Assembly (NCBI GenBank): GCA_001784565.1
Contig: MFRL01000027.1
Span: 660-64,659 of the forward strand
DNA from: Candidatus Melainabacteria bacterium GWF2_37_15
Lineage (GTDB): Bacteria > Cyanobacteriota > Vampirovibrionia > Gastranaerophilales > UBA9971
Direction: 5' to 3'
Length of the DNA stretch: 64,000 nt
Positions 31,644 through 61,896 of this stretch are shown here, piece after piece (within the stretch, counting starts at the first letter, position 1; every line of letters begins with the position of its first letter). Both the position numbers and the translations under genes were made by a program. A model generated the notes under the pieces. That model did no database searches. It saw nothing but the letters and a program-made list of their open reading frames with translations, and had not been told where the DNA came from.

Positions 31644-31671
31644 AGTACTATTATTATAGAATGAAAACGTT

Positions 31672-32349
31672 ATGAGATACATTTCAATTTTTGACATAAT
31701 TGGCCCCATAATGATTGGCCCCTCAAGTTCTCACACTGCTGGCGCCATAAGAATTGGCTTGTTTGCAAGGAAAATTTTTGGAAAAAATCCTGAAAAAGTT
31801 TTATTCAGGCTTTATAACTCTTTTGCAAAAACAGGACTCGGCCACGGCACAGACAAAGGGCTGCTGGGCGGGGTTCTGGGCTTTAATGTTGATGATTCCA
31901 GAATAAAAAACTCTTTTTATTATGCGCGGGAACAGGGAGTTGCTTATAACTTTGAATACCTGGCTCGTGACGATAGGTATCCGAATTCTGTTGATATTAT
32001 TTTTATGGACACAAATAATAATGTACTTATGGAGATTTCCGGCAAGTCTGTAGGCGGTGGAGAAGTACAAATAGATAAAGTTGATGGATTTAATACCGAC
32101 ATACGAGGTGATTATCCGGTACTAATAATGGTTTATAAAGATCAAAAAGGTGTAATATCAAATATATCAAAATTAATTCAGGATCAAAATGTAAATATCG
32201 CTACGATTAACTGCGAAAGAAAAGAAAAAAACCAGGAAGCTGTGCTGACAATATGTCTTGATTCAGTATTAAGCATTGAAACCGTAGAGGAAATAAGGAA
32301 ACTTCCTGATATGTATATGGTTAGAAATATAGATAAGTTAGAAGAATGA
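31672..32349 (+). CDS. sdaAB: L-serine dehydratase, iron-sulfur type, beta subunit
   Basis: N-terminal IFDIIGPIMIGPSSSHTAG plus a C-terminal ACT-like domain. Confidence 0.9.
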   Translation: MRYISIFDIIGPIMIGPSSSHTAGAIRIGLFARKIFGKNPEKVLFRLYNSFAKTGLGHGTDKGLLGGVLGFNVDDSRIKNSFYYAREQGVAYNFEYLARDDRYPNSVDIIFMDTNNNVLMEISGKSVGGGEVQIDKVDGFNTDIRGDYPVLIMVYKDQKGVISNISKLIQDQNVNIATINCERKEKNQEAVLTICLDSVLSIETVEEIRKLPDMYMVRNIDKLEE

Positions 32350-36320: not shown

Positions 36321-37013
36321 TTATTCCACACTACCTTTTAATACTTCTGCAGAACAGGCGTAGCCATTAGCATAACCTCCATCATCAACGGTGGAACAAG
36401 GACTGACTGTTCCAAGCCAATCCGTACTGCCAGAAGGTTTTATCCCATCTTTTGTTACAAAAATGAAATAAATATCAAGTCCAAGTTTATTAGGTGCTTT
36501 CGGTCCATTAACATCTACAATTAAACGAGCGCAAAAAGGCATACCTGCACCCAAAGAAATATCATTACAGGCCTCATTATAACCCGAAACATTAATTGTA
36601 CTTCCATCCATAAACCATAATATTATCCCTCCGCTTGTAAATCCTGCAATATCGTCTATCACATTTCCCTCATATCCATACCATTTATCAGACAGACACC
36701 CTGAGGCCTGTGCATCATTAGTATAACCGCAATCTCTATAAATTTTTAATCCGCTTCGATGAATATAAGCCTGTGCCATACAAGAACTTGTCACGCAAAT
36801 AGGAAGATTAGACATATTAGTACTATCATATGAAAGCATAAGAAGTTTATGAGCCTGTGCAAGAACAGTGTACTGTTTTTTCCAGGCTGTCCTCAGAGTT
36901 TTGTTTTGAAAATTTGTTACCAGCACTGGTATGGTTTCACTCGCTACGACGCCAAGTATTATAATGACAAGTAATACTTCTGCGAGTGAGAAACCTGCAA
37001 TTTTATTTTTCAT
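36321..37013 (-). CDS. Prepilin-type N-terminal cleavage/methylation domain protein (pseudopilin), Cys-rich
   Basis: The AG|FSLAEVLLVIIILGVV leader has Gly-1, Phe+1 and Glu+5. The C-terminal domain carries 8 Cys. Confidence 0.7.
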   Translation of the reverse strand: MKNKIAGFSLAEVLLVIIILGVVASETIPVLVTNFQNKTLRTAWKKQYTVLAQAHKLLMLSYDSTNMSNLPICVTSSCMAQAYIHRSGLKIYRDCGYTNDAQASGCLSDKWYGYEGNVIDDIAGFTSGGIILWFMDGSTINVSGYNEACNDISLGAGMPFCARLIVDVNGPKAPNKLGLDIYFIFVTKDGIKPSGSTDWLGTVSPCSTVDDGGYANGYACSAEVLKGSVE

Positions 37014-37032: not shown

Positions 37033-38106
37033 TTATAAACTTTTTAAAGAGGCTAAAAACCTTTTATAAAAATCTTCCCAGTTGTATTGCAAGGCTGTTT
37101 CATAAGCGTTCCGGGATATTTTTTCATAATCAATTTTCTTATTTAACACTAATTCCATTTTTTCCGCAAGGTTATCATCAAATATAAAGCCGTTTTCTCC
37201 ATTCTTGATTATTTCTGATGCCCCGCAGTAATGGCTTACAATGGCTGGAATTTTGTTAGCCATCCCCTCCAGGGCAACAAGGCCGAATGTTTCAAGAAAA
37301 GATGGCATTACCACGCAGTTTATGGAATTATAAAATCCTTGCATATTCTCCTGGTATGGTAAAAACTTAATTCTATCTCGCAACCCATACTTATTAAGCA
37401 GGTATTGCAGTTTGAGATTTTTTTTGTATTTGGGATAAATTATTTTTGCCCGGAAAATGTAGTTTTTGTCTTTAAGGTCTTTAAGTGCTTTTAAAAAAAC
37501 ATATCCGCCTTTTTTTTCAAAACTTGGCGCTGACAGTCCGAAGGTAAAAATGCCGTTATGTTTTTTTGGGGCGGAATTTGGTACATCCACGCCCGGATAC
37601 ATCACAACAAACTTTTCATCTGGTATGTTAAAATTCTCCATTAACTCGGTTTTTAAAACCTCAGAAGGAACTATTATCTTGCGGTATTGGTTTTTTAACC
37701 ACTTTTTCTGTGCCTGAATATGTTTATATTTTAATAAGCCAAAGAAAAATCCTGATTTTTTCTTGTAATGGATGAGTGAATGCCCCTGTAGAATTCCTAT
37801 ATCCAGCGGTGGGGAAATATTTTCTGATATTACAAAGTCATAATTCTCTGCTTGCGTGAGATTTTTAACCTCATTATAAAACTTCTCAATTTTATGTGGA
37901 TATTTAAAGTCTTTTGGATGACCAAGAAAAACTATTTTATTCAGTTTATTTTTAAGTATATTTTGTTTGCTTAAATAGGTAGTGCAGTATAAATCAACAG
38001 CAAAACCGTCCTGAATAGCCCGATTCACCAACTCGTAAAAAAGCCGCTCCCCACCGCTGTGAAAGTCATCTTCTCTAAAAACATTAATTACAAAGGCCAG
38101 TTTCAT
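37033..38106 (-). CDS. Glycosyltransferase family 4 (GT-B)
   Basis: The C-terminal EX7E region ETFGLVALEGMANKIPAI and overall GT4 layout. Confidence 0.8.
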   Translation of the reverse strand: MKLAFVINVFREDDFHSGGERLFYELVNRAIQDGFAVDLYCTTYLSKQNILKNKLNKIVFLGHPKDFKYPHKIEKFYNEVKNLTQAENYDFVISENISPPLDIGILQGHSLIHYKKKSGFFFGLLKYKHIQAQKKWLKNQYRKIIVPSEVLKTELMENFNIPDEKFVVMYPGVDVPNSAPKKHNGIFTFGLSAPSFEKKGGYVFLKALKDLKDKNYIFRAKIIYPKYKKNLKLQYLLNKYGLRDRIKFLPYQENMQGFYNSINCVVMPSFLETFGLVALEGMANKIPAIVSHYCGASEIIKNGENGFIFDDNLAEKMELVLNKKIDYEKISRNAYETALQYNWEDFYKRFLASLKSL

Positions 38107-38111
38107 TGTAT

Positions 38112-38825
38112 CTACTGAGCAGTCATTAAGCCCTTCCTGCCTTCAATAGATATCTCATTAAAGCTGTATAGTCTTGCAGGACGCTTGGATGATTCTTTGG
38201 TAAACTCTTCATGCTCATTTAAAATGTCTAAAGACACAATCTTTTTCCTGAAATTCCTTTTATCCAGGTCATGATTTAAAATAGATTCGTATGTTTTTTG
38301 AAGCTCAGTTAAGGTGAACTTTTTAGGCAGTAACTGGAACGCAATAGGCGTGTATTCCAGTCTTGCTTTTAATCTTTTTAAAGCATAAGAAACAATAGCC
38401 TGGTGGTCGAAAGCAAGTGCGGGAAGTTTATATACTGGATGCCAGCTAATCTGCTGGATGTTTAAACCTTCTTCTGATGAAAGAATCAAATCATCAGACC
38501 TTATAAGTGCCACATAACTAACAGTTATAACCCTTGCGCTCGGATATCTGTGTGGATCACCAAAAGTGTAAAGCTGTTCCAGATAAACATCCTTAACGTG
38601 TGTTTTTTCATAAAGAACTCTCTTGGCAGCTTCTTCAAGGTTTTCTGATAATCTTACGAATCCTCCGGGAATCGCCCACTTGTTCTTAAAGGGTTCATGA
38701 CCTCTTTGTACAAGCAGAACATCAAGACTACCGTTTCGAATGGTGAAAATAACTATGTCAACTGTAACTTCGTGTGTTTTTTGTTCAATCATTCGCTTTG
38801 CACTTGTTAATTGTAAAATTTGCAC
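38112..38825 (-). CDS. NrtR-like protein: degenerate Nudix domain plus C-terminal winged helix
   Basis: The Nudix box reads GGFVRLSENLEEAAKRVLYEKTHV, so the REUXEEXGU core is degenerate (RVLYEKTHV). The C-terminal third resembles the NrtR wHTH. The start is uncertain. Confidence 0.7.
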   Translation of the reverse strand: MQILQLTSAKRMIEQKTHEVTVDIVIFTIRNGSLDVLLVQRGHEPFKNKWAIPGGFVRLSENLEEAAKRVLYEKTHVKDVYLEQLYTFGDPHRYPSARVITVSYVALIRSDDLILSSEEGLNIQQISWHPVYKLPALAFDHQAIVSYALKRLKARLEYTPIAFQLLPKKFTLTELQKTYESILNHDLDKRNFRKKIVSLDILNEHEEFTKESSKRPARLYSFNEISIEGRKGLMTAQ

Positions 38826-38863
38826 TTTATTTCCATTAAAATTATACTCTTTAATGACAGAAA

Positions 38864-40018
38864 TTGTTAATACATTTTATGAACGAAAATTTTTGTATAA
38901 GAGAAATTATACCGGATAGCGCTAAAACAGTTATAGAAAGCATAGGGTTCGATAAATCCTATGTACATGCATCTGTTAAAAAATATAATTTTAAACTCAT
39001 AAAAATATGCAACCTGAGCTGCCCTCAGGCGAACATAATAAAACAGGTAGCACTCTCAGCAGGAGCAGATGCTGCTGTGCACAGGGAAGTAATAACGTGC
39101 AAAGTGGAAAAGACTGATTTGCTGCTTGGCGGAACAATAGCGCAACTCGAAAACATCTGCCAAAAACTGAAAAATCAGCCGTTTAAATTATCCGAACTTT
39201 CTGATCACTTATTAAAACAGTTAACAGTCAAAAAGCATACATGGTCTGATAAAACGTATATCATGGGTATTTTAAATGTTACCCCGGATTCGTTTTCCGA
39301 TGGGGGGAAATACTTTGATCCTGAAAAGGCGGCCGAACATGCTAAAGAAATAATTAAAGCAGGCGCAGATATTATAGATATAGGTGGCGAATCCACAAGG
39401 CCCCATTCAAAAGAAGTTAATATTGATGAAGAACTTAAAAGAGTGTTGCCGGTAATTGAAAAAATCAGGAGTTTTAATACTACAATTCCGCTAAGTATTG
39501 ATACACGGCATGCAGAAGTGGCGAAACAGGCAGTGCAAGCTGGAGCTAACATTATAAATGATGTTTCAGGGCTGGAATGGGATGGCAATATGGTTAATAT
39601 TGCAGCAGAATTGCAGGTGCCCGTTGTAATTATGCATAGCGTAGGCTCTTCAGAAACCAGGTATGATTATAAGGAAAACATAGTTGATGCTGTTTACAAA
39701 GACCTTTGCCGTAAAACACAAAAAGCGCTTTCTTTAGGTTTAAAGCCCGAAAACATAATAATTGATCCGGGTATCGGCTTTGGTAAGACAGTTGAACATA
39801 ACCTGGAGCTGGTAAAAAGAATTGGTGAATTTAAATCACTGGGTTATCCGGTTTTAATTGGAATATCCAGGAAGTCATTTATTTCCGGCGATGAAGATGT
39901 TACCCTTGCTCTAAATACCTATGCTGCAACAAATGGTGCAGATATTATCCGTGTTCATAATGTTGATAAGCACGTTAAAGCTATGAAAGTATTACAAACC
40001 CTTAATAATATTTCCTAA
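38864..40018 (+). CDS. folP: Dihydropteroate synthase with ~125-aa N-terminal extension
   Basis: IMGILNVTPDSFSDGG, DIGGESTRP, IIDPGIGFGK motifs. Confidence 0.9.
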   Translation: MLIHFMNENFCIREIIPDSAKTVIESIGFDKSYVHASVKKYNFKLIKICNLSCPQANIIKQVALSAGADAAVHREVITCKVEKTDLLLGGTIAQLENICQKLKNQPFKLSELSDHLLKQLTVKKHTWSDKTYIMGILNVTPDSFSDGGKYFDPEKAAEHAKEIIKAGADIIDIGGESTRPHSKEVNIDEELKRVLPVIEKIRSFNTTIPLSIDTRHAEVAKQAVQAGANIINDVSGLEWDGNMVNIAAELQVPVVIMHSVGSSETRYDYKENIVDAVYKDLCRKTQKALSLGLKPENIIIDPGIGFGKTVEHNLELVKRIGEFKSLGYPVLIGISRKSFISGDEDVTLALNTYAATNGADIIRVHNVDKHVKAMKVLQTLNNIS

Positions 40019-40070: not shown

Positions 40071-40322
40071 ATGAAAAAGATAATTATACTTCTGAGTTTA
40101 TTCTGCGTTCCAATGACAGCCAGTGCTGGCGATGATCAGTACTATACGGTTTACGATGAACAATCTGACACTACCAAAACTCGCAATGAATTGAGCGAGG
40201 ACAAGATAGAAACCCGCTCTGAATCAATTATAAAAAGCGAATTAGGTAATTTAAAGAACGAAATAAAAACATTAAAAAATCAAATGTATAATGAAATACG
40301 CAAATTGAGGCAAAGCTTTTAA
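40071..40322 (+). CDS. Hypothetical small secreted protein
   Basis: Signal peptide [19 protein letters not shown], followed by a charged coiled-coil-like tail. Confidence 0.4.
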
Positions 40323-41320
40323 ATTAATGCCTGCTTGGGTTTAACCCCTTCTTCCTGCATATCAGCATCCACCATAATTTTCACAAGTTCTTTAAAAGTA
40401 ACTTTAGGCTGCCAACCGAGTTTTTGTTTTGCTTTTGTTGCATCGCCGATTAATAAATCAACTTCGGCCGGTCTGAAGTACCTTGGGTCAATTTCCACGT
40501 ATTTTTGCCAGTCCAAACCAACATAACTAAATGCTTCATCAAGGAACTCCCTGATTGAATGCGTTTCTCCGGTTGCGATAACGTAATCATCAGGCTCGTT
40601 TTGCTGGAGCATTAACCACATGGCTTCAACGTAATCCTTAGCGTAGCCCCAGTCACGTTTGGCATCAAGGTTTCCAAGATAAAGTTTGTCTTGTTTCCCG
40701 GCAACTATTTTTGCAAGGGCTTTTGTGATTTTCCTTGTTACAAAGGTTTCGCCTCTACGTGGGGATTCGTGGTTGAATAAAATGCCGTTACATGCGTATA
40801 AATTATAGCTTTCCCTGTAATTCACGGTCATCCAGTAGGCATACAGCTTAGCTACGGCATATGGACTACGGGGATAAAAAGGTGTAGTTTCCCTTTGCGG
40901 TATTTCCTGAACTTTTCCGTACAATTCGCTAGAGGATGCCTGGTAAAACTTTGTTTTAATCTGGGTTTCTTTGATAGCGTCCAGTAATCTTATTGCTCCC
41001 AGTCCTGTCACATCCCCGGTATATTCCGGTATGTCAAAACTTACCCTTACGTGGCTTTGCGCGCCGAGATGGTATATTTCATCAGGGCCTACTTTTTCGA
41101 GCAGTCTTGAGATATTGGAAGAATCTGACAAGTCGCCGTAATGCAGGAATAGCCTGGTTCCTTTTAAGTGCGGGTCACTGTATAAATGGTCGATTCTGTC
41201 AGTGTTAAAAGAGCTTGACCTTCTTATTATTCCGTGAACTTCATACCCTTTTTCAAGCAGCAGCTCTGTTAAATATGACCCATCCTGTCCTGTAATTCCG
41301 GTGATTAGTGCTTTTTTCAT
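40319..41320 (-). CDS. gmd: GDP-mannose 4,6-dehydratase
   Basis: [20 protein letters not shown], and [10 protein letters not shown] catalytic YxxxK. Confidence 0.95.
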
Positions 41321-41407
41321 TTCAACAAAATCCTTTTATATAATTATTTATGGTTAATATTTTACTACGAATAAGCCATAACGATAATTTTATAGTATAA
41401 ATTAATA

Positions 41408-41998
41408 ATGAAGGATATTGTCTGGCATTCTGCTAAAATAAGCAAGGAAAATAAAGAAACCCTTCTGAATCAGAAGGCCTGCGTACTCTGGTTTACTGGC
41501 CTGTCCGGCTCCGGAAAGTCCACCATAGCTGTGGAACTCGAAAAAAATTTTTATGAAAAAGGTAAATATACAGTAATGCTCGATGGCGATAATATCAGGC
41601 ATAGTTTGTGTTCGGATTTAGGATTCTCTGTAGAAGACAGGCAGGAAAATTTAAGAAGAATAAGGGAAACAGCAAAATTATTCTACGAAAACGGAGCCAT
41701 AACCATAGTTTCCTTTATTTCACCGTTTAAACAGGACAGGGAATTAGCAAGAAACTTAATAGGGAAAGACTTCATAGAAATCTTCATTGAGTGTAAGATT
41801 GAAATATGTGAAAAAAGAGACCCCAAAGGGTTGTATAAAAAGGCTAGAGCTGGTGAAATAAAGGGATTTACCGGAATAGACCAGGAATACGAAAAGCCTG
41901 ATAAGCCTGAAATTACTATAAATTCAGATAAAATAACGGTAGAAGAAGCTGTTAATAAGATAATCGGGTATTTATATGGATCATCTGGAAGCAATTGA
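41408..41998 (+). CDS. cysC: Adenylyl-sulfate (APS) kinase
   Basis: All catalytic motifs are intact: [19 protein letters not shown] and SFISPF. Confidence 0.9.
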
Positions 41999-42776
41999 AG
42001 CACAAAGTATCTACATTTTAAGGGAAGCATACAAACATTTCGGAAAGCTGGGTATGCTCTGGTCAATAGGCAAGGATTCCACTGTAATGCTTTGGCTGGC
42101 GCAGAAAGCGTTTTTCGGGCATTGCCCTTTCCCATTAATTCACGTTGATACAAGCTATAAAATTCCTGAAATGATTGAATTCAGGGATAAGCTGATTAAG
42201 GAACTGAATCTTAATTTAATAGTTCATCAGAACAAGGAAGCTCTTGAACAGGGCATGAACCCGAAAAAAGGAAGGCTTGTATGCTGTGAACATTTAAAAA
42301 CAAAACCATTGCAGGAAGTAGTAAAGAAATTCGGGTTTGAAGGTCTAATCCTCGGTGTTCGTAGGGACGAAGAGGGCTCACGCTCAAAAGAGCGTTTTTT
42401 CAGCGAGAGAGACAGCGAATCAAACTGGGATTACACTGACCAGCCGCCCGAGTTATGGGACCAGTTCAAGACAGACTTTAAAAAAGGCAACCATATTAGG
42501 ATCCATCCGCTTCTCCAGTGGCGAGAGATTGACATCTGGAAATACATTCAAAGGGAAAATATTCCTGTAGTTGACTTATACTTTGCTAAAAACGGGAAAA
42601 GATACAGAAGCCTTGGGTGTTACCCCTGTACATTCCCGATTGATTCTAATGTAACTGATGTTGAGGGAATTGTCGAGGAACTCCAACACACCACCCAGGC
42701 CGAACGCTCAGGCAGGGCGCAAGACCAGGAAGACGCTTACGCAATGCAGAAATTAAGAAGCAAAGGGTATATGTAA
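41976..42776 (+). CDS. cysD: Sulfate adenylyltransferase subunit 2
   Basis: [35 protein letters not shown]; close to the E. coli CysD pattern. Confidence 0.9.
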
Positions 42777-44611
42777 TGACTGAATTGGCTGTAAAAATAA
42801 GGGAAAAGCTTAATATAGTTGTAGTCGGCCACGTTGACCACGGAAAATCCACCCTCATAGGCAGGCTTCTGTTTGATACAAATTCGCTCTCTTCTGGTGC
42901 CATTGAAAAAGTTAAAAAAATATCTGCACAAAACGGAAAACCTTTTGAATATGCGTATTTACTTGATGCTTTTGAGGAAGAACAGAAGCAGGGTATTACC
43001 ATAGACACCACGAACATTAATTTTTCCACTGAAAAAAGGGATTATGTCATTATTGACGCGCCAGGCCACAAGGAATTCTTAAAAAATATGATTTCAGGAG
43101 CCTCAAGTGCAGAAGCAGCACTATTAATGATAGACGCAAATGAAGGGATTCAGGAGCAGTCAAGAAGACATGGCTATATCCTCTCACTTCTTGGGATCAA
43201 AAAAGTTTTTGTAATAGTAAATAAAATGGACTTAATCGGCTATTCCGAGGCTGTTTATAATGATATAATGCGGAATTTCAACAAATTCCTAAGCAATTTA
43301 AACATTTATCCTATAGAATACATACCCGTATCTGCTTTTAACGGGGAAAACATAACTATACGATCAGATAATCTTGCGTGGTACAAGGGAGTTACAGTAA
43401 TTGAGGCATTGGATTTAATACAAAAAGACCCGGAAGCTGAAGATAAACCCCTGAGATTTTCAATTCAGGACGTTTACAAATTTGATACCAGAAGAATTAT
43501 TGCTGGCAGAATAGAAGCCGGAACCCTGAAAGTTGGGGATGAGATCACCATAAGCCCTTCAGGCAAAACCACAAAAGTGAAAACAATTGAGAACTGGCCG
43601 CATGAACACGATAAAAATTATGTTTCAGCGGGCATGTCGGTTGGTATAACAGTCGAGGACGAGTTTTTCAACAAAAGAGGCGAGGTCATATCCCATAACC
43701 ACAATAAACCCCAGAAAAGTAACCTGTTTAACGCAAATATATTCTGGATGGGGAAAAATCCCCTGGTTAAAGGCAAGACCTACAAACTAAAATTAACCAC
43801 TCAGGAAGTGGAATGTGAAGTATTTTCTATAAACAGGGTTATAGATTCATCTAATCTCACAGCTGCTGAGGATTTTACTGCTGTAAACAGGAACGAAGTT
43901 GCAGAAGTAACAATTAAAACACGTGAAGTAGTTTGTTTTGACGAATTTGCAGAATACAGAGGCACAGGAAGGTTTGTAATTGTTGAAGATTATAATGTTT
44001 CAGGCGGCGGCATTGTTCTTAAAACCGACGATACATTGAAAAACAGGATTCTTGAACCAAAAAGCAAAAGCCTCAAACCCCGCACACGATTGGTTACAAG
44101 AGAACAAAAAGAAAAAAAACTAGGCCAAAAAGCAAAAGTTATCTGGTTAACAGGTTTAACTGGTTGCGGCAAGAATGAAATAGCCGTGAAGCTGGAGAAA
44201 AAACTGTTTGAACTGGGTAAAACCCTGTGCTATCTTGATTCTGCAAACCTAAGGTTTAGTATAAGCTCTGATCTTGAATTTAACGAGTCAGGAGTATATG
44301 AACAAACGAGAAGGATAGCTGAAATCGCTAACCAGTTCATGAATAACGGTATAATAACTATCGTTACCTCAATTAGTAGGTATAAAAAGGCCAGGGAGTC
44401 AGCAAAAGAGATTATTGGCACTGATGATTATCTGGAATTCCACATTGAAGTCACAGAAGCAGTCCTTAAAAAACGCTGGGATTCTAGTCAGGAATGTTAT
44501 TATGAAAAATCAGATTACCCTGTACGTTCTATGTACATTGACGATCCAAACTTTAATGCGGACGAAAAAGTGGATTTAATAATGGAAAGTATAAAAGATA
44601 TTTTACAATAA
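42776..44611 (+). CDS. cysN: Sulfate adenylyltransferase subunit 1 (GTPase) fused to a degenerate APS-kinase-like domain
   Basis: It has the GTPase motifs GHVDHGKST, DAPGH and NKMD. The C-terminal 163 aa are APS-kinase-like but with altered motifs (see findings). Confidence 0.9.
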   Translation: MTELAVKIREKLNIVVVGHVDHGKSTLIGRLLFDTNSLSSGAIEKVKKISAQNGKPFEYAYLLDAFEEEQKQGITIDTTNINFSTEKRDYVIIDAPGHKEFLKNMISGASSAEAALLMIDANEGIQEQSRRHGYILSLLGIKKVFVIVNKMDLIGYSEAVYNDIMRNFNKFLSNLNIYPIEYIPVSAFNGENITIRSDNLAWYKGVTVIEALDLIQKDPEAEDKPLRFSIQDVYKFDTRRIIAGRIEAGTLKVGDEITISPSGKTTKVKTIENWPHEHDKNYVSAGMSVGITVEDEFFNKRGEVISHNHNKPQKSNLFNANIFWMGKNPLVKGKTYKLKLTTQEVECEVFSINRVIDSSNLTAAEDFTAVNRNEVAEVTIKTREVVCFDEFAEYRGTGRFVIVEDYNVSGGGIVLKTDDTLKNRILEPKSKSLKPRTRLVTREQKEKKLGQKAKVIWLTGLTGCGKNEIAVKLEKKLFELGKTLCYLDSANLRFSISSDLEFNESGVYEQTRRIAEIANQFMNNGIITIVTSISRYKKARESAKEIIGTDDYLEFHIEVTEAVLKKRWDSSQECYYEKSDYPVRSMYIDDPNFNADEKVDLIMESIKDILQ

Positions 44612-46323
44612 TGGACATTTTTATATTAATTTGCTTGTTTATAGTAATTATTTTACTTGTTAAAAGCCTGATAGAGCCGACTTTAGCTTTTTTGGGACTT
44701 TTAATTTTTTATTTCCTGCTTGATTTAATTACTGTGAACGACTTATTGGGCAGTTTTGTTAATACATCAATAATAACCCTGATGTTGCTTATCATTATTG
44801 CTGATGTACTGGCGAGAACGCAGATCACATCGCTCACAAACCGCGTAGTAGGAACAAAAAAAAGGAATGTTTTAGGCTTGGGAGTGTTGGTGAGCTTTTT
44901 ATCCAGCTTTTTGAGCAACACCCTCGTAGTCCAAATGTTCATTAATATGCTTAATAAAAAGGAATTCAAGTCCAGGCTACTTTTGCCCGTTTCATACCTT
45001 GCTATCTTGGGCGGCACAACAACCCTGATCGGGACCTCCACAAACTTGATTGCACAGGGATTTATGATTCAAATGGGTTTGCAACCTTTTAAATTTCTTG
45101 ATTTTGCATATGTTGGGATTCCCCTTGTATTCGCAGGTATTATTTATTTAACATTTTTCAGTCCCATAATCCTTAAGCATAAGCCAAATGAAGCAGTTCA
45201 GGAATGTGAAAATTATTTTCTTGAAGCCAGAGTTCTGGAAGGCTCATCATTAAACGGTAAAACCATTATGGAAAATGGACTTAGAAACCTTCATAGTCTC
45301 TTTCTGGCAGAAATAATAAGGCATAATAAACTAATTTCTCCTGTAAAACCAGATGAATTGGTACTTGAAGGGGATATTTTAGTATTTACAGGCGATATAG
45401 AAAATATTAATGAGCTTCAAAAATTTAACAAGCTTGAAATATTTGAGCAAAAGAACGATGTGTTATGCAGAAATCTTGTATGGGCTGTTCTTTCGCATAA
45501 TTCTTCGCTGGTTAACCAAAAAATAAAAGAGTGTAACTTCAGAAGGAAGTTCGATGCAGCAATAGTAGCGATTAAAAGGGAAGGTGAAAGCCTGAGAGGA
45601 AAAATCGGTGAAATTACGCTAAAAGCAGGCGATCATTTAATCCTGGCGGTTGGTGAAAACTTTCTGCCTACCAGGGAGGTCAAAAGTAATTTTTACCTGC
45701 TGAATGACCTTGAAACTGTTAAAAAATTCGACATCAAAAATTCAATGTTTATCTATTTTTCTTTCCTCCTGCTCATTGTCCTGTCTGCGCTTAATTTGAT
45801 AGACCTGCTCAAAGGCCTGTTTGTGCTTTTATTTTTATACATGATTTTAAAATTCATAACGTTTAAGGATGTAATTAAAAACATAAATGTAAACCTGCTA
45901 ATCCTGCTGGGATCAGCCCTGGGAATCTCTAAGGTGCTTGTGTCTAACGGTGCGTCAGAACTTATATCAAATTTTATATTATATATAAGCCAGAATATAG
46001 GTGTTTACGGCACATTCATAGCTATATACTTTCTTTCAATTGTACTTACTGAATTCACATTAAACGCATGTGCTGTGGCAATTGCGTTTCCAATTGCATA
46101 CCTGACTGCAATTAGCCTGGGAGTTAGCCCGACTCCATTTATATTTGCTGTAACTTACGGCGCCAGCGCAAGTTTCCTTACAAAATTTGGTTACCAGACT
46201 AATATGATGGTTTCCGCAGCAGGAAATTATAAAGCAGGAGATTTTATAAGGCTTGGCCTTCCCTTATCCATAATTTACGCAATAATAGTGTTGACTCTGG
46301 TACCTGTATTCTTTAAATTTTAA
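44611..46323 (+). CDS. SLC13/DASS-type anion permease with two central TrkA-C domains (putative sulfate transporter)
   Basis: Polytopic N- and C-terminal halves flank two RCK_C-like units (LEGSSLNGKTI..., SSLVNQKIKECNF...). The sulfate assignment rests on its position inside the cys cluster. Confidence 0.75.
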   Translation: MDIFILICLFIVIILLVKSLIEPTLAFLGLLIFYFLLDLITVNDLLGSFVNTSIITLMLLIIIADVLARTQITSLTNRVVGTKKRNVLGLGVLVSFLSSFLSNTLVVQMFINMLNKKEFKSRLLLPVSYLAILGGTTTLIGTSTNLIAQGFMIQMGLQPFKFLDFAYVGIPLVFAGIIYLTFFSPIILKHKPNEAVQECENYFLEARVLEGSSLNGKTIMENGLRNLHSLFLAEIIRHNKLISPVKPDELVLEGDILVFTGDIENINELQKFNKLEIFEQKNDVLCRNLVWAVLSHNSSLVNQKIKECNFRRKFDAAIVAIKREGESLRGKIGEITLKAGDHLILAVGENFLPTREVKSNFYLLNDLETVKKFDIKNSMFIYFSFLLLIVLSALNLIDLLKGLFVLLFLYMILKFITFKDVIKNINVNLLILLGSALGISKVLVSNGASELISNFILYISQNIGVYGTFIAIYFLSIVLTEFTLNACAVAIAFPIAYLTAISLGVSPTPFIFAVTYGASASFLTKFGYQTNMMVSAAGNYKAGDFIRLGLPLSIIYAIIVLTLVPVFFKF

Positions 46324-46335
46324 AGGACGTTGATA

Positions 46336-47076
46336 ATGATTGAACAAGTAATAAAAATAGCAAACCAGGCCGCAGAAGCCATCATGGAAATATATAAAAG
46401 TGTTGATCCTGAGGTTAAGTACAAGAAGGACGATTCACCGGTCACGCAAGCTGACATATTATCAAATGAACTAATAATTAAAGAGTTAAAACAGATTTCT
46501 GATCTGCCTATCCTCACAGAAGAAACCCAGGTTCTTTATGAACAAAGGAAAACCTGGAATAAATTCTGGCTGGTTGATCCATTGGATGGAACAAAGGACT
46601 TCCTTGTCAAAAACGACCAATTTACGGTTAATATTGCGCTGGTAGAAAATAGGAAACCTATATTAGGAGCGGTTCTAATCCCGGCTGAAGGACTCTGCTA
46701 TTGGGCAGAAAAAGATAAAGGCGCTTTTAAAAATGGGGAAAAAATTTATAATAATTCCAAAAGAACTGACTTAATCGGAAGCGACAGTAATTTCCATTCG
46801 ACTGAAGAAACCCAGGCTTTCTATGCAAAGCATAACGTGCAGCATATTCAAAGATACGGTTCTGCCTTAAAGTTCTGCAAACTGGCAGAAGGAGAAATCG
46901 ACCTGTACGCTAGGCTAAACGGCACCATGGAATGGGATACAGCCGCTGGCCATATTATTATGAATGAAGCAGGATGTAAAATTATTGATGTAAAAACAAA
47001 AAGCGAGCTTATTTACAACAAGGAAACCCTGCTAAATAATCATTTCATCGCTTGCAGGAATGATTTAAGTTTTTAA
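46336..47076 (+). CDS. cysQ: 3'(2'),5'-bisphosphate nucleotidase
   Basis: ILTEE, WLVDPLDGTKDF and WDTAAG motifs. The ATG at 46336 is preferred over the TTG at 46330. Confidence 0.85.
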   Translation: MIEQVIKIANQAAEAIMEIYKSVDPEVKYKKDDSPVTQADILSNELIIKELKQISDLPILTEETQVLYEQRKTWNKFWLVDPLDGTKDFLVKNDQFTVNIALVENRKPILGAVLIPAEGLCYWAEKDKGAFKNGEKIYNNSKRTDLIGSDSNFHSTEETQAFYAKHNVQHIQRYGSALKFCKLAEGEIDLYARLNGTMEWDTAAGHIIMNEAGCKIIDVKTKSELIYNKETLLNNHFIACRNDLSF

Positions 47077-47678
47077 AAGCTTATAACTAAACCTTTTCCA
47101 TCTTCAATTTTGTGCATAAATTCGTCTGTTGTCACTATTCCATCGTTATCGGCATCAGCGGCTTTTATCGCTTCCAGCATAGCTTTTTCGCGTTTTTGTG
47201 CCAGAGAATCGGTTCCGCTTAGAGCATTTAGCTCCCCGTCGATACCGCGAACGTGAAATTTATTATTATCACCTTTCTCATACTGCATTTTATTAAAGAA
47301 TTCAAAGGCAAAATCTTCATCCACATATTCTGTGCCTTCTGATTCACTAAAAAATTTATCTTCGTTATTATTTACAAGTTCTTCACCTAATTGAGCTTTA
47401 TTCGTAAAAAATTCACCCCAGTGGTCTGTTGTGTGTGTATGGTGATGATGGTGCTCAACAGGTTCACTGTCTACAACAGGTTCACTTACAGTCACAGGTT
47501 CGCTAACCTCTGCAGGTTTCTGTGCTACTGTTGGTGCATTAAACGCTGCAAATAAATTCATAAATGCGTTCAAGAATGAATTTGTATTATTTGTATAATT
47601 ATTTGTATATACCGGCGTAAAAAATGAGGTTCTAGGTCTATACATACTTTGCACTGCTAGTAAACTATAAATACTCAT
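47073..47678 (-). CDS. Hypothetical N/Y-rich protein with SEPV repeats, His run and a canonical EF-hand loop
   Basis: DADNDGIVTTDE fits the 12-residue EF-hand loop. The N-terminal architecture parallels the ORF at 54237. Confidence 0.55.
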   Translation of the reverse strand: MSIYSLLAVQSMYRPRTSFFTPVYTNNYTNNTNSFLNAFMNLFAAFNAPTVAQKPAEVSEPVTVSEPVVDSEPVEHHHHHTHTTDHWGEFFTNKAQLGEELVNNNEDKFFSESEGTEYVDEDFAFEFFNKMQYEKGDNNKFHVRGIDGELNALSGTDSLAQKREKAMLEAIKAADADNDGIVTTDEFMHKIEDGKGLVISF

Positions 47679-49335: not shown

Positions 49336-49509
49336 TTAAAATTTATACTCAGTTGCCAATTCCCCGTTAGGCAGGGCATAAACAACTTTGCCATTAATTG
49401 AATATACATTTGGCAAGCCTTTGCACCAATTTTCCTGCTGAGCTTTTTTAACTGCCCTGTTGAATAATTTTGCTATTTCAAATACTTCCTCAAGTTCTTT
49501 CTTAATCAT
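49336..49509 (-). CDS. Unannotated 57-aa ORF coupled to the zeta-like ATPase (candidate partner/antitoxin)
   Basis: I translated it by hand: MIKKELEEVFEIAKLFNRAVKKAQQENWCKGLPNVYSINGKVVYALPNGELATEYKF. Its ATG overlaps the upstream stop within ATGATTAA. It is below the 60-aa cutoff of the ORF track. Confidence 0.4.
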   Translation of the reverse strand: MIKKELEEVFEIAKLFNRAVKKAQQENWCKGLPNVYSINGKVVYALPNGELATEYKF

Positions 49510-50074
49510 TTTTTATATCCTTTAAAAACAACTCAAAAGAGCTTTCATCAAGTAAATTATAATCTCCCTTTATTCCACTTGCAACCAGCTCAATTTTTTC
49601 TATACCATTATAGAATAACATCCATTTATCTACTATATCCCTATATTTATACCATAAATTACTTTTGCTTCTGTAAAATCGGCGTATTACATCCTCATCA
49701 GGTACAAAATGCCCGCCACGCTTAACTCGAACTTTTATTCGCTCTATACAGATATTAGGATTATCAACAAAACAATATATTAACGCTGTATTATATCCCT
49801 GTTGCCTGGCCTGTTTTATTGTTTTAACAAGAAAATTTCCCGAAAGCGTTGTTTCAATCGCAAAAGATATGCCCTGTAAAAGCAGTTCGTTTATCTTTTT
49901 AAGCACTAATTTTCCTGCCTGAATCCTAACAGCCTGTAAATCATCAGGATTAATTTCCCTTGCAACCTCATCTGCATTGATAAATTTAAGCCCAAATTCC
50001 GGTAATAACTCCTTTGCAAGAGTAGTTTTACCGCTTCCATTCGCTCCGGCAATTATAAACAGTTGTTTAGACAA
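49502..50074 (-). CDS. Zeta-toxin-like P-loop ATPase/kinase (COG4185 type)
   Basis: Walker A GANGSGKTT, NADE, ETTLSG, and the RVKRGGHFVP pattern typical of this family. Confidence 0.7.
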   Translation of the reverse strand: MSKQLFIIAGANGSGKTTLAKELLPEFGLKFINADEVAREINPDDLQAVRIQAGKLVLKKINELLLQGISFAIETTLSGNFLVKTIKQARQQGYNTALIYCFVDNPNICIERIKVRVKRGGHFVPDEDVIRRFYRSKSNLWYKYRDIVDKWMLFYNGIEKIELVASGIKGDYNLLDESSFELFLKDIKND

Positions 50075-54236: not shown

Positions 54237-55745
54237 TTAACCGATATACTGCAATAAAGCGTCAATCATAGTGCCTTTAGAGCCATCAGCTCTTTCAAAT
54301 CCGCCAACGAGTCCTACTGTATTACCGTGCTGGTCTTCTTTTAGCTTACCGGTTTGATCATATTCCTGGTTAAAGCTTGTTGATACTGATTTAATATTTG
54401 TTTCAAGCAATGATTTTAATTCATCATCATCAACCTGTCCGTTATGGTTTAAATCCTGCCAAGTCTGAAGCTTTTCAAACACTTCATCATTAATATCAAC
54501 TTTTCCGTCTTTATTTACATCATATTTTGCCAGTTCAAAGAACCCATTTTCAGCGCCGTTTTGTGCACCGAAGAGTTCCTTGCCTGAATCAATCTGTCCA
54601 TTACCGTCTTTATCAAGTACAAGGAATGCATCATCGCTTTCAGCTTTAGTCCAGGCTGTCTGGTCAATTTTACCATCACCGTTTAAATCAAAGTTTACAC
54701 CGTCTTTTTGTGATGTTAAATCTATTCCATTTCCGGCCAGGTCAAGGATTAACGGAGTTTCTTTTCTTGCAAGCGTTGTTATAACATTGTATTCAGTTCC
54801 GTCAAGCTGAATTTTACCGCCCACGCCTTCTTCATGTTCTGATATGCCTACGTTTTCAACGTGGGTGTTTATGTTTAAGCTGTCCGATGTAACATTAAAA
54901 TCTTTATTAAAAACAGCATCACCGGTTCTATTCAATGGATTTCTGCCACTGCCTCCATCCCAGTCAGAATCCGGGTCTATCTGGTAGTTAGCAGCTACAC
55001 CTAATATCTCGCCTGACTTAGAAATTATATAAGCCTGACCCTTATCGAATTTAAGATCTTTAGTTTCCTGATCAAGCTTAGAGTATAAGCTTAATAATGC
55101 CTCGTCATTGGCAGTAACACTGTTATGGCGGGTATAATTCCAGGCTTCACCGTTTCCGCTATCTGCTCCTGCAAAATCGAGGATTGATTTGCCAAGATTT
55201 ACCTGCTCATTATTATTCGCATATGACGATATAACAAACACATCTTCAGGTTCTTCGCTGCTTTCAACCGCAACTTCTTCACTGACAGGTGTTTGGGTGT
55301 TAATAAAGTAATTATTCCAGATATTGATTGCATTGGAGCTTCCAGTTGTGTTATTTGTAAAATTTGATTGCTGGCTTGTCATGGATTGGGAAATAATTTG
55401 AGTGGTTATAGGAGCCAGAGTTTGGAAATTTTGCCACGTTTGCGAAGTTTGAAAACTCTGCAAACTTTGACTCTGCAAGCTTTGAGCTTGAGGCGCTATT
55501 GTAGGTGTGACTATAGGTTCAGTTATAGGCTCAGTCTGAGGTTGAAATAAACTTTGTAAAGTTTCAGGGGAACGCTCTAACATTGCCATAAAAAGCATGG
55601 CAAAAATACTGTTAAAATATGAATTTTGATAGGAATTCTGGTAAGGACTTTGTCCATATTGTCCGAAATTTTGTCCGTAATTCCCAAAGGAATTGAAATT
55701 GCTTTGATAAGCGTTCTGGTTCACATAACCTGCAAATATACCCAT
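54237..55745 (-). CDS. Hypothetical N/Q/Y-rich protein with four EF-hand-like calcium-binding loops
   Basis: The loops are DLNGDGKIDQTA, DKDGNGQIDSGK, DVNKDGKVDIND and DLNHNGQVDDDE. GGAGGAG RBS. Confidence 0.6.
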   Translation of the reverse strand: MGIFAGYVNQNAYQSNFNSFGNYGQNFGQYGQSPYQNSYQNSYFNSIFAMLFMAMLERSPETLQSLFQPQTEPITEPIVTPTIAPQAQSLQSQSLQSFQTSQTWQNFQTLAPITTQIISQSMTSQQSNFTNNTTGSSNAINIWNNYFINTQTPVSEEVAVESSEEPEDVFVISSYANNNEQVNLGKSILDFAGADSGNGEAWNYTRHNSVTANDEALLSLYSKLDQETKDLKFDKGQAYIISKSGEILGVAANYQIDPDSDWDGGSGRNPLNRTGDAVFNKDFNVTSDSLNINTHVENVGISEHEEGVGGKIQLDGTEYNVITTLARKETPLILDLAGNGIDLTSQKDGVNFDLNGDGKIDQTAWTKAESDDAFLVLDKDGNGQIDSGKELFGAQNGAENGFFELAKYDVNKDGKVDINDEVFEKLQTWQDLNHNGQVDDDELKSLLETNIKSVSTSFNQEYDQTGKLKEDQHGNTVGLVGGFERADGSKGTMIDALLQYIG

Positions 55746-55885: not shown

Positions 55886-56806
55886 ATGAAAGCAGCAGTA
55901 CTTAGAGAAGGTAATAAAAATCTTGTAATAGAAGACATCCCCATCCCCGAACCCGGAGCTGGCGAGGTGCTGGTAAAAGTGGCGGCCTGCGGTGTATGCC
56001 AGACAGACCTTCACTATATTGACCACGGAATACCAACCCAGAAAAAGCCGCCTATGATCCTTGGCCACGAAATATCAGGCATTGTAACAGCTACAGGCCA
56101 GAGGGTTTTACTGCTGCCGATATTCTGCGATAACAGAATAATGCTGGGTAATACAATTGACGGGGGGTTTGCCGAATATGTTAAAGTCCCGGAAGAAGCC
56201 GTTATACCCCTGCCTGATGAAATCCCGCTGGAAGAAGGCTGCATAATAGCTGATGCCGTTTCAACCCCTTACCATGCGGTTATGAACCGGGCAAAAGTAA
56301 AGCCTACGGATAAAGTAATTGTATTTGGATGCGGAGGCGTTGGGATGAACGTTGTGCAGATCTCTGCAATGCTAGGCGCGGAAGTCACAGCCTGCGACAT
56401 TGATGAAAATAAACTGGAAATTGCAAAGGAGCTCGGTGCTGCATACACAGTAAAACCTGACCAGATTAATACGAAGTATGATGTTGCCTTTGAAGTAATT
56501 GGTAAGCCGGAAACAATCGAAGCAGCGTTTAAGACCCTCGGCAAAGCGGGGAGGTTGTGTGTCATAGGCTACACAAATCAGAATATAACCATAAACCCCG
56601 CCAAGATTATGTTTTTTGAGCAGGAAATAATCGGTTCTATCGGGTGCAGGATTGGCGATTACTCGAAAATTTTTAAACTTGTTATTGATGGTAAAATAAA
56701 GCTTGATAAGTTAATTGCGAATAAATATAGGCTTGAGGGTATTAACAAAGCCCTGGATGAATTAAGAAAATCAAAAGTATTGAGGAATATAATATTACTC
56801 AGCTAA
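55886..56806 (+). CDS. Zinc-type (MDR) alcohol dehydrogenase family protein lacking the structural-zinc lobe
   Basis: ACGVCQTDLH, GHEISG, and the GCGGVG Rossmann motif. Only 26 aa separate GHEISG from DGGFAEY. Confidence 0.75.
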   Translation: MKAAVLREGNKNLVIEDIPIPEPGAGEVLVKVAACGVCQTDLHYIDHGIPTQKKPPMILGHEISGIVTATGQRVLLLPIFCDNRIMLGNTIDGGFAEYVKVPEEAVIPLPDEIPLEEGCIIADAVSTPYHAVMNRAKVKPTDKVIVFGCGGVGMNVVQISAMLGAEVTACDIDENKLEIAKELGAAYTVKPDQINTKYDVAFEVIGKPETIEAAFKTLGKAGRLCVIGYTNQNITINPAKIMFFEQEIIGSIGCRIGDYSKIFKLVIDGKIKLDKLIANKYRLEGINKALDELRKSKVLRNIILLS

Positions 56807-57184
56807 CTGCTTTATAACTTTTATAAATTCTTCTGTATCGTGAATATCACTAATAAGAGCTTGCTTATCAGGTTGGAATGTAATTGTATAATCGCTTCTT
56901 TGTCTATTATCAAATGTTTTTATGTATAGTTTACCGTATTTTTCTTCTACTTTGTTGGTTTTAATGAATTCCCTGTTAAACCATCCTAATAATTGTCCAT
57001 GTTTTGATGTAGCAAAACCATATTTTTGGGCTAATGCTGATATTGCGTAGAAGATCGCATAGTATAACCTGTTCTGTGTTGTTGATAAACGGTTATTTCC
57101 TACTGCAATCTTTGCATCGTCCATAGCTTCATCTGATTTTAACAACCAGTTTTTTATCAATAATTCTTTATCTCTACCTTGCAT
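56795..57184 (-). CDS. HEPN domain protein (UPF0332-like), toxin of a HEPN/MNT pair
   Basis: NRLYYAIFYAISAL...SKHGQL...RQRSDY matches the UPF0332/HEPN pattern. The start is at the ATG at 57184, overlapping the MNT stop. Confidence 0.7.
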   Translation of the reverse strand: MQGRDKELLIKNWLLKSDEAMDDAKIAVGNNRLSTTQNRLYYAIFYAISALAQKYGFATSKHGQLLGWFNREFIKTNKVEEKYGKLYIKTFDNRQRSDYTITFQPDKQALISDIHDTEEFIKVIKQLAE

Positions 57185-57473
57185 AGTAAAACCCTTTTTT
57201 AACTTCATCAAAATAAATCCAGTTAAAATTAAGTTCCTCAAGGGTCATAGGCTGAAAATCAATTATGGCATCATATTTTATCATTAAATCTAATGTTTCC
57301 CCGTGAACCTCTGTTGATTGTTCCCGACGTGTTTTAAACACTCCAACAATATCAATATCACTGTCAAGTGTTGCTGTCCCCTTTGCGTATGAGCCATATA
57401 AATATAAACCCATAAAGTCATCATATTTTCGCAATTTATCGCATAATTCCTGCGCAATTTTTTTTGCGTTCAT
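57174..57473 (-). CDS. Minimal nucleotidyltransferase (MNT), antitoxin-type partner of HEPN
   Basis: It has the GSYAKG...DSDIDI NTase motif. The product is 99 aa. Confidence 0.75.
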   Translation of the reverse strand: MNAKKIAQELCDKLRKYDDFMGLYLYGSYAKGTATLDSDIDIVGVFKTRREQSTEVHGETLDLMIKYDAIIDFQPMTLEELNFNWIYFDEVKKGFYYAR

Positions 57474-61664: not shown

Positions 61665-61896
61665 TATTGCCCCACATTTCAGTATAAGAAATGGATTTTG
61701 AGGAGCTTGACTCGTGAAGGTCCTTGATTTCCTGTTCACTCAAAGTTTCTGATTCTTCTTTAACTGTTTTAAAAGCTTCATCGAAAACTTTTTTTCTTCT
61801 TTCATTGATAAACTGAGCAAAATCAATAACTTCCGCAAGTTCTATTTCATTAAGATTTTCAATTATTTTATTCAACTTATCTTTAGATGTAGCCAT
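61654..61896 (-). CDS. Putative antitoxin of the RelE/ParE pair
   Basis: 80-aa acidic product. Its stop overlaps the toxin start by 11 nt. Confidence 0.5.
   Translation of the reverse strand: MATSKDKLNKIIENLNEIELAEVIDFAQFINERRKKVFDEAFKTVKEESETLSEQEIKDLHESSSSKSISYTEMWGNNDL

Follow-up and report, generated by a model that had tools for sequence, protein, structure and literature searches.

A putative five-gene operon for PAPS supply in the uncultured Candidatus Melainabacteria bacterium GWF2_37_15

The window analyzed here, a 64 kb (64,000-nucleotide) stretch of DNA from Candidatus Melainabacteria bacterium GWF2_37_15, carried five overlapping or abutting genes on the plus strand at positions 41408 to 47076: cysC, cysD, a cysN with an APS-kinase-like domain that is predicted to be dead, a permease gene, and cysQ. 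We read these genes as one translationally coupled operon for PAPS supply and, with modest confidence, regard sulfotransferases encoded elsewhere as the likeliest consumers of PAPS in GWF2_37_15. The five enzymes are ordinary, standard, and annotated before; the arrangement of the operon is derived and occurs in a clade of Melainabacteria related to Gastranaerophilales. In GWF2_37_15, PAPS may be used for sulfating sugars or for making cysteine. A protein match at 100% identity (P0001) and the protein record OGI03494.1 both gave GWF2_37_15 as the source. GWF2_37_15 is an uncultured relative of the cyanobacteria, and its assembly is a 2.27 Mb draft metagenome-assembled genome (MAG) of 102 scaffolds that may be incomplete. 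The sequence that we examined comprised the window and 9 kb past its right end.

Results

The initial annotation had described cysC, cysD, cysN, the permease gene, and cysQ as contiguous, and this description held for all five genes. The cysC and cysD genes overlapped by 23 nt, cysD and cysN by 1 nt, and cysN and the permease gene by 1 nt. The gap between the permease gene and cysQ was 6 to 12 nt, depending on which cysQ start was chosen; the ATG at 46336 was likelier than the alternative TTG at 46330, with an AGGA located 8 nt ahead of the ATG.

The first gene, cysC (41408 to 41998, plus strand), encoded a 196-aa APS kinase that is predicted to be active, as it exceeded the curated cutoff of TIGR00455 (262 bits; cutoff, 138.7), matched PF01583 (E = 1.3e-66), and had an intact P-loop and an intact FISPF motif. 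The second gene, cysD (41976 to 42776, plus strand), encoded the 266-aa small subunit of a GTP-dependent ATP sulfurylase. The product scored 375 bits against NF003587 (cutoff, 195) and contained the PP-loop SIGKDS, and it was assigned to CysD rather than to CysH because its score against the cysH model NF002537 was 88 bits, which is under the cutoff of 154. The CysD homologs in related loci were also 266 aa long, with the exception of a 272-aa protein in one locus (L093). The partner subunit was encoded by the cysN ORF (42776 to 44611, plus strand). Its GTPase part (residues 1 to about 428; 42776 to 44059) contained the G1, G3, and G4 motifs GHVDHGKST, DAPGH, and NKMD, and the best match among solved structures was 1zun_B, the CysN of P. 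syringae, at 278 bits. CysN scored 359 bits against TIGR02034 (cutoff, 336); the CysD model match and the CysN motifs and score together identified the pair as a CysDN-type GTP-dependent ATP sulfurylase. The last gene, cysQ (46336 to 47076, plus strand), is predicted to encode a 3'(2'),5'-bisphosphate nucleotidase (PAP phosphatase), based on an equivalog score of 247.6 bits against TIGR01331 (cutoff, 228.8) and on DPLDGT and WDTAAG, the metal motifs of the inositol monophosphatase fold.

The C-terminal part of CysN (44060 to 44611, plus strand) resembled an APS kinase, and we predict that it lacks kinase activity. The APS_kinase match covered only profile positions 2 to 117 of 152, and the alignment to the Arabidopsis thaliana APS kinase 3uie covered residues 12 to 139 only, with the lid region missing. 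In addition, GLSGSGKST was replaced by GLTGCGKNE, LDGDNVR by LDSANLR, and LISPY by SISRY. Thus, none of the features of a NodQ-type CysN/CysC fusion (an intact P-loop, DGD, FISP, and a lid) was present, and CysN scored 504.7 bits against the bifunctional CysN/CysC model NF004035, which is under the cutoff of 715. Similar substitutions were found in the tails of most members of the CysN family, including those of Clostridium species. The PDB matches of the tail included 1i2d and 1m8p from Penicillium chrysogenum and 3cr8 from Thiobacillus denitrificans, at 31 to 37 bits. The APS-kinase-like domains of these ATP sulfurylases are regulatory or structural and are not kinases, but their fusion partners are homomeric Sat-type sulfurylases, whereas the tail in the window is fused to the CysN GTPase. 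The tail may serve as a scaffold or as a nucleotide-sensing domain.

The permease (44611 to 46323, plus strand; 570 aa) was of the CitMHS/SLC13 type and contained two central TrkA_C domains (PF02080). It scored 137 bits against CitMHS (PF03600; cutoff, 31.9) and also matched Na_sulph_symp (PF00939), but its score against the DASS/SLC13 model TIGR00785 (80 bits) was under the cutoff of 198.6. The protein is therefore not a DASS symporter by this measure, and the most fitting description is an SLC13-related permease of the IT superfamily; we infer from the gene context that it imports sulfate. Two related loci (L003 and L101) lacked the permease gene and contained a divergent CysPTWA sulfate ABC transporter (NF008022, 488 bits). 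In the ACD20-type cluster, the transporter role was occupied by a plain DASS transporter, and the TrkA_C permease was found in none of 79 AprA-type loci.

The initial annotation had also pointed to glycan genes next to the cluster. A gmd gene (40319 to 41320), a GT4 glycosyltransferase gene (37033 to 38106), and an N_methyl pseudopilin gene (36321 to 37013) were indeed located near the operon, but all three were on the minus strand, opposite to the operon, and folP and an NrtR-like regulator separated gmd from the GT4 gene. The neighborhood was not conserved, either. The core of the operon was kept in each of about nine lineages (CysN identity, 71 to 94%), whereas the flanks were different in each, and sugar genes were near the operon only in the window and in one relative. 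Because the flanks varied by lineage, the gmd, GT4, and pseudopilin neighbors carried little weight.

Only 87 bp separated the divergent gmd and cysC genes. This gap contained a promoter-like site on the plus strand (TTTACT-16-GATAAT, 41361 to 41388) with 9 of 12 consensus matches, which is weak evidence, as the frequency of such sites in the region was about that expected by chance; the counts in a promoter and terminator scan of the region were likewise near chance. The gap was too short to hold a riboswitch or T-box, and an Rfam search of the 34 to 50 kb part of the window for such an element, which would have linked the operon to cysteine or SAM, found none. Near the sulfur genes of eight related loci, the only Rfam match was a 23S rRNA fragment (L016). 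Because the ACD20-type locus, which is assimilatory, was among these and also lacked such an element, the RNA regulator test was uninformative with respect to assimilation.

As the initial annotation had reported, no gene that would consume PAPS was visible in the window. Every ORF of at least 90 aa was compared to Pfam, and five sulfotransferases as well as Sir, AprA, and AprB were used as tblastn queries against the window. Neither the 64 kb window nor the 9 kb past its right end contained a gene for a PAPS/APS reductase, a sulfite reductase, or a sulfotransferase, and no sulfotransferase-type P-loop was found among window ORFs of at least 80 aa. The sulfotransferase gene that adjoins or is co-regulated with the PAPS genes in clusters of the NodPQ-NodH and Bt_0411-0416 type thus had no counterpart in the window or the right flank. 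Three candidates were considered and rejected. The product of 30807 to 31709, which has DHODB Fe-S and NAD binding domains, scored 63.6 bits against the AsrB model (cutoff, 288.6) and 396 bits as NF004862, a sulfide/dihydroorotate-dehydrogenase-like protein. A 201-aa ORF convergent with cysQ was His rich and had only a weak EF-hand match, and an AAA_33 protein (49502 to 50074) had the kinase-like Walker A motif GANGSGKTT; neither was retained as a hidden sulfotransferase.

The operon differed from its relatives in its separation from aprAB. The window-type CysN proteins were monophyletic and formed the sole branch of their family without aprA-aprB directly upstream of cysD-cysN. Specifically, the 6 kb upstream of cysD-cysN contained aprA-aprB in 51 of the 56 other relatives, which were retrieved by CysN alone, and in 0 of about nine window-type lineages. 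Neither the window nor any of the window-type loci had the ACD20-type arrangement, in which aprA-aprB stand beside cysD-cysN with sir nearby. These comparisons supported the idea that the activation genes in the window-type clade have lost their link to aprAB and gained one to cysQ and the permease gene. A metagenome scan with CysN yielded only one new window-type locus (L101).

Two relatives pointed to opposite fates for PAPS. On contig SRR31444213_1095 (CysN 75% identical), the same five genes were contiguous with a glycan locus that contained sulfotransferase genes, so the sulfotransferase adjacency seen in PAPS donor clusters was present there. Three of the sulfotransferases exceeded the Pfam gathering thresholds (two PF17784 matches at 77 and 82 bits and one PF00685 match at 33.5 bits), two more were paralogs, and the locus also contained GT2, GT4, DegT, WbqC, ACP, and methyltransferase genes. 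A 351-aa ORF on locus L006 had no Pfam match and no PDB sequence match; we kept it as sulfotransferase-like based on family links to PF00685 and PF13469 members. In the case of the MAG PL23a_bin.110, the same operon was located on JANQEB010000128 (CysN 81% identical), and a second contig, JANQEB010000212, carried a sir-aprA-aprB-hemA-hemC/sirohaem synthase-cobA/hemD-hemB operon. The tetranucleotide composition of the two contigs was correlated (r = 0.973), which supported the binning. The initial annotation had taken the missing reductase as an argument against cysteine synthesis, and PL23a_bin.110 removes that argument: since this MAG has both the operon and a distal sir-aprAB, a 64 kb window cannot exclude assimilation, and a reductase missing from the window is no evidence of absence from the genome.

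PL23a_bin.110 speaks in favor of ordinary assimilation, in which the operon would activate sulfate, and enzymes encoded elsewhere (an AprAB-like PAPS reductase or CysH, and a sirohaem sulfite reductase) would turn PAPS into sulfide for cysteine synthesis. We consider this explanation rather unlikely for GWF2_37_15, although several other observations agree with it. Outside the window-type clade, the CysDN family is linked to aprAB, and AprAB-like enzymes can be PAPS specific and need a PAP phosphatase (PMC10322725). The neighbors of the operon in one lineage (L003) included the CysPTWA transporter and an Rrf2 regulator weakly similar to CymR (84 bits; cutoff, 195), which hints at control linked to cysteine. 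Some Clostridium assimilatory clusters contain cysQ, and for this reason cysQ cannot tell sulfation from assimilation.

Searches for reductive genes in GWF2_37_15 argued against assimilation. An AprA ortholog in this genome would be expected at about 75 to 80% identity, and none from GWF2_37_15 was found among the best 120 matches, which extended to 63% identity; the GWF2_37_15 proteome was present in the protein database. The AprA of a close relative matched 3 protein clusters at at least 78% identity versus 21 CysN clusters in the clade. Weak evidence came from a search of GTDB genomes with a chimeric AprA and Sir query, in which the best 80 of 299 loci did not include GWF2_37_15, and from a trait table that scored it 0 for both sulfate-to-sulfite and sulfite-to-sulfide reduction, with dissimilatory markers (PMC5079060). 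On the side of the sulfotransferases, no named GWF2_37_15 member was found among 43 matches to the P0121/P0122 sulfotransferase family, and we found nothing specific in the literature on the sulfur metabolism of Melainabacteria.

A third explanation is dual use, in which the operon would be a general PAPS supply for a reductase and for sulfotransferases in one cell, as in E. coli-type or mycobacterial systems. Within one monophyletic clade, the operon was accompanied by a reductive operon on another contig in one case and abutted a locus with several sulfotransferase genes in another, so the module is compatible with either sink; no single contig or MAG that we examined had both, and we judge dual use to be improbable. 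A role outside sulfur supply, as a decaying assimilatory remnant or in acting on analogues such as selenate or molybdate, seems highly improbable. Signs of decay were present in relatives, as cysN was broken into two ORFs in one of them (L011/L012) and the operon of another (L093) lacked cysC. In the window, however, all five ORFs were intact with conserved catalytic motifs, and the operon proteins were 62 to 93% identical across lineages with different flanks, which indicates purifying selection.

Overall, the initial proposal that the cluster makes a sulfuryl donor for sulfated glycans or lipids was supported in part. It was strengthened by the uncoupling from aprAB, the sulfotransferase locus on SRR31444213_1095, and the AprA search, and it was weakened by the sir-aprAB operon of PL23a_bin.110, by the changing flanks, by the failure to find a sulfotransferase gene in the window or its right flank, and by the uninformative cysQ.

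Discussion

Our preferred reading, PAPS supply for sulfotransferases, would proceed as follows. Sulfate would enter through the TrkA_C-gated permease, CysD and CysN would make APS from ATP and GTP, and the separate CysC would convert APS to PAPS. The PAPS would most likely go to sulfotransferases that are encoded elsewhere in GWF2_37_15 and act on glycans or other acceptors. PAP, the toxic by-product of sulfuryl transfer, would then be hydrolyzed by CysQ, yielding AMP and phosphate.

On this reading, the window operon would belong with clusters of the Bacteroides Bt_0411-0416 and NodPQ kind. Rhizobial NodP and NodQ are a paralog pair of CysD and CysN-CysC that duplicates the housekeeping cysDNC set and makes PAPS for the Nod factor sulfotransferase NodH. 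Both systems combine a CysD/CysN-type GTP-dependent ATP sulfurylase with an APS kinase, and NodPQ is dedicated to a sulfuryl donor for glycans. The fused APS kinase domain of NodQ is an active kinase, whereas that of the window is degenerate, with a separate cysC in its place. The window also adds a permease gene and cysQ, and to our knowledge the NodPQ unit has neither. In Bacteroides thetaiotaomicron, the PAPS genes Bt_0411-Bt_0415 adjoin the sulfotransferase gene BT_0416 (PMC9417993). The likeness would lie in a sulfate importer and PAPS genes clustered for a sulfotransferase rather than for cysteine synthesis, a layout that SRR31444213_1095 repeats with several sulfotransferases. Unlike the Bacteroides cluster, the window has no adjacent sulfotransferase and its CysN has a dead APS-kinase-like tail, and the acceptor in SRR31444213_1095 looks glycan-like rather than sterol.

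The closest sequence family was the Clostridium/ACD20 type (sir, DASS transporter, cysC, aprA, aprB, cysD, and cysN with an APS-kinase-like tail), with CysN 62 to 65% and CysD 71 to 79% identical. The dead tail and separate cysC are shared, but the window lacks aprAB and sir, its TrkA_C permease replaces the DASS transporter, and cysQ is added. In Methanothermococcus thermolithotrophicus, a PAPS route with PAP recycling serves assimilation via an AprAB-like PAPS reductase (PMC10322725). As in the window, the genes for ATP sulfurylase, APS kinase, and PAP phosphatase are grouped there. [quoted passage not shown]

More speculatively, and at somewhat less than even chance, a Gastranaerophilales-like clade of non-photosynthetic Melainabacteria may have converted a Clostridium-type assimilatory operon into an independent source of PAPS, losing aprAB and sir and gaining cysQ and a gated permease. 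Such a source would feed sulfotransferase-rich glycan loci that make sulfated surface polysaccharides or glycolipids, and the conserved dead CysN tail would be an APS/PAPS sensor or a dock for CysC.

For annotation, these comparisons suggest a rule: cysDN beside aprAB points to assimilation, and a union of cysDN with cysQ and a TrkA_C permease gene points to a PAPS supply that stands alone. Should sulfotransferases be the consumers of the PAPS, then sulfated glycans or lipids are made by uncultured relatives of the cyanobacteria from groundwater and the gut. This trait is rare among bacteria, with Bacteroides and cyanobacterial exopolysaccharides as known cases. Such sulfation bears on surface chemistry and on interactions with hosts or phages.

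Gene content and organization of the operon

The initial annotation had claimed a five-gene PAPS cluster, and ORF calls and curated models confirmed it at 41408-47076, with all five ORFs on the plus strand. Four of the genes were identified with curated models that have defined cutoffs, namely cysC (41408-41998; TIGR00455, 262 bits, cutoff 138.7), cysD (41976-42776; NF003587, 375 bits, cutoff 195), cysN (42776-44611; TIGR02034, 359 bits, cutoff 336), and cysQ (46330 or 46336 to 47076; TIGR01331, 247.6 bits, cutoff 228.8). The fourth gene in the series (44611-46323) encoded a permease with a CitMHS match, two TrkA_C domains, and a weak Na_sulph_symp match. Motif inspection indicated that the catalytic motifs of CysC, CysD, the CysN GTPase, and CysQ were intact. 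Successive ORFs overlapped by 23, 1, and 1 nt, and the gap between the permease gene and cysQ was 6 to 12 nt; therefore, the five genes make up a single operon with translational coupling. The 87-bp gap between cysC and the divergent gmd gene contained a weak promoter-like site, and an Rfam search detected no element at the operon. Sequence provides good support for the predicted role of the operon in sulfate uptake, PAPS synthesis, and PAP recycling.

The window CysN was 100% identical to OGI03494.1 of GWF2_37_15, a 2.27-Mb MAG in 102 scaffolds from the Rifle aquifer (PMC5079060). A close homolog carried the name Candidatus Gastranaerophilales.

The C-terminal tail of CysN

The C-terminal tail of CysN (44060-44611, plus strand) produced a partial APS_kinase match (profile positions 2-117 of 152) and could be aligned to solved APS kinases over its first ~130 residues only. 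Its P-loop read GLTGCGKNE in place of GLSGSGKST, LDSANLR replaced LDGDNVR, SISRY replaced LISPY, and the lid region was absent. The same or similar substitutions (GKNE, LDSxNLR, SxSR[FY], and no lid) were found in most members of the CysN family (homologs P0001-P0120), including the CysN proteins of Clostridium species. A separate cysC was present in most related clusters that were sampled. Degraded motifs across most of the family, together with the separate cysC, argue that the tail is not a kinase but a conserved non-catalytic domain. Because fungal and Thiobacillus sulfurylase domains were among its PDB matches, we infer that the tail may act as a scaffold or sensor.

Comparison of the operon with related loci

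CysN proteins with 71-94% identity were found on contigs of about nine lineages. The core cysC-cysD-cysN-[permease]-cysQ arrangement was kept, and the flanking genes were different in every lineage. Two of the related loci (L003 and L101) had no permease gene and carried a divergent CysPTWA sulfate ABC transporter and an Rrf2 regulator beside cysQ, which supports the prediction that the substrate of the permease is sulfate.

In a phylogenetic tree, the CysN proteins of these operons formed one clade that was sister to Clostridium/ACD20 proteins. The sister groups had the order cysC-aprA-aprB-cysD-cysN, and sir and a DASS transporter gene often accompanied it. Among other relatives that were retrieved by CysN alone and had enough upstream sequence, 51 of 56 had aprA no more than 6 kb upstream, whereas aprA was found within 6 kb upstream in none of the loci that share the window operon. 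The TrkA_C permease was absent from all 79 AprA-type loci, and a cysQ-like gene was present in a few of them. The distribution of aprA and of the permease shows that the window operon has a derived layout, with the activation of sulfate uncoupled from its reduction.

Several other features of the related loci were recorded. In L011 (9690-11548) and L012 (5584-7442), cysN was split into 92-aa and 515-aa ORFs by a frameshift or an assembly error, and L093 (4832-10472) carried an operon without cysC and with a MerR regulator gene ahead of cysD. A gene for a B12-binding, DUF4070-containing radical SAM protein recurred upstream of the operon, at a distance of a few kb in two relatives (L011 2409-3872 and L093 473-1957) and of 15 kb in the window (25139-26617, plus strand); its recurrence may indicate a functional connection or be a trace of older synteny. 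Between sir and the DASS transporter gene, the ACD20 locus encoded a conserved protein of 208 aa that matched no Pfam family (L007 3840-4466). Homologs with 41-48% identity were encoded in L014, L015, L022, L023, L028, L034, and L107. The protein, which is uncharacterised, is a component of assimilatory clusters of the ACD20 type and of several from Firmicutes.

Sulfur and glycan genes in the window

The initial annotation had also stated that the window lacked a reductase and a visible sulfotransferase. This was upheld. A Pfam scan of all window ORFs of at least 90 aa, done directly or via precomputed hits, detected no PAPS/APS reductase, sulfite reductase, or sulfotransferase; tblastn of the window with Sir, AprA, AprB, and five sulfotransferases produced no match; and no sulfotransferase-type P-loop was found in ORFs of at least 80 aa. 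The ~9 kb past the right end of the window were equally without these three types of genes. The sole look-alike in the window, a candidate AsrB at 30807-31709, was rejected as an NfnA/GltD-partner-type flavoprotein.

The proposed glycan neighborhood stood only in part. The gmd, GT4, and pseudopilin genes were indeed close to the operon, but all three were on the opposite strand, and folP and a regulator gene lay between gmd and the GT4 gene. Because the neighborhood was not conserved, it is weak evidence on the use of PAPS. Most neighbors of the operon were housekeeping genes (folP, an NrtR-like regulator gene, dtd, map, adk, secY, purB, ispH, fmt, def, flagellar genes, and others).

The NrtR-like Nudix/winged-helix regulator gene (169 bits, cutoff 400) was divergent from folP in the 38112-40018 region, and the 384-aa folP product had ~130 extra N-terminal residues ahead of the pterin-binding domain. 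A 201-aa ORF (47073-47678, minus strand) was convergent with cysQ and overlapped its stop by 4 nt; the product belonged to no family, contained acidic repeats and a run of five histidines (HHHHH), and had a C-terminus with weak similarity to an EF-hand. A larger EF-hand/SPM protein was encoded at 54237-55745 (minus strand). Motility genes were fliW and the overlapping csrA (4454-5196), a PilZ protein gene (14562-15182), and flhB beside a gene for a sigma-70 region-4 factor (59661-61374), which fit a flagellated melainabacterium. Likely toxin-antitoxin and stress modules, all on the minus strand, were a HEPN-nucleotidyltransferase pair (56795-57473), a ParE-like toxin gene preceded by a small ORF (61395-61739; recognized through L095), and a gene for a Fic-domain protein (23169-24008).

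Possible uses of PAPS

The rhizobial NodPQ system, to which the operon had been likened, is likewise a PAPS supply cluster. Clusters of this kind are also known from Bacteroides (PMC9417993). Although the window itself had no sulfotransferase gene, the proposed PAPS-for-glycan layout was present in a relative. On contig SRR31444213_1095 (CysN 75% identical), all five operon genes were contiguous with a glycan locus that encoded two PF17784 sulfotransferases (77 and 82 bits) and one PF00685 sulfotransferase (33.5 bits), which had two further paralogs on the contig. Other genes there encoded GT2, GT4, DegT, WbqC, an acyl carrier protein, an AMP-ligase, and methyltransferases. The sulfotransferase family P0121/P0122 had no named GWF2_37_15 member among its matches. 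On balance, we lean slightly toward sulfation as the use of PAPS in GWF2_37_15.

A second possibility is that PAPS is used for assimilation through distal reductive genes. The Gastranaerophilales MAG PL23a_bin.110 (GCA_028278605.1) carried the operon on JANQEB010000128 (CysN 81% identical) and a compact operon on JANQEB010000212 (L027 8264-16375) with sir, aprA, an aprB-like ferredoxin gene, hemA, hemC fused to a sirohaem synthase N-domain, cobA/hemD, and hemB. The latter operon couples an AprAB-type reductase and sulfite reductase to the synthesis of their sirohaem cofactor. The two contigs matched in composition, with a tetranucleotide correlation of r = 0.973, compared to 0.84-0.91 for clostridial loci. 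An AprAB-like enzyme can function as a PAPS reductase and then needs PAP to be removed (PMC10322725). Thus, the same operon can serve assimilation with reductive genes elsewhere in the genome. The sir-aprAB contig of another MAG, PL23a_bin.35, terminated in a 23S rRNA fragment (L016 1-655, minus strand).

When the PL23a_bin.110 AprA was used as a query against a protein database containing the GWF2_37_15 proteome, the best 120 matches (at least 63% identity) included no GWF2_37_15 protein. Among these matches, only three protein clusters, all from PL23 MAGs, had at least 78% identity, and the next had at most 70%. The clade had 21 CysN clusters compared to three AprA clusters, so only a minority of its members seem to carry the reductive set. 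GWF2_37_15 was also absent from the best 80 of 299 AprA/Sir loci in GTDB genomes. The original study scored it 0 for sulfate and sulfite reduction (PMC5079060), which is weak evidence because the trait table uses dissimilatory markers. We consider assimilation unlikely to be the use of PAPS in GWF2_37_15, and a dual use in sulfation and assimilation is less likely still.

Two points are of modest interest beyond the use of PAPS in this genome. One is that cysDN is uncoupled from aprAB throughout the clade, and the other is the dead kinase tail of CysN, whose conservation suggests an undescribed non-catalytic role.
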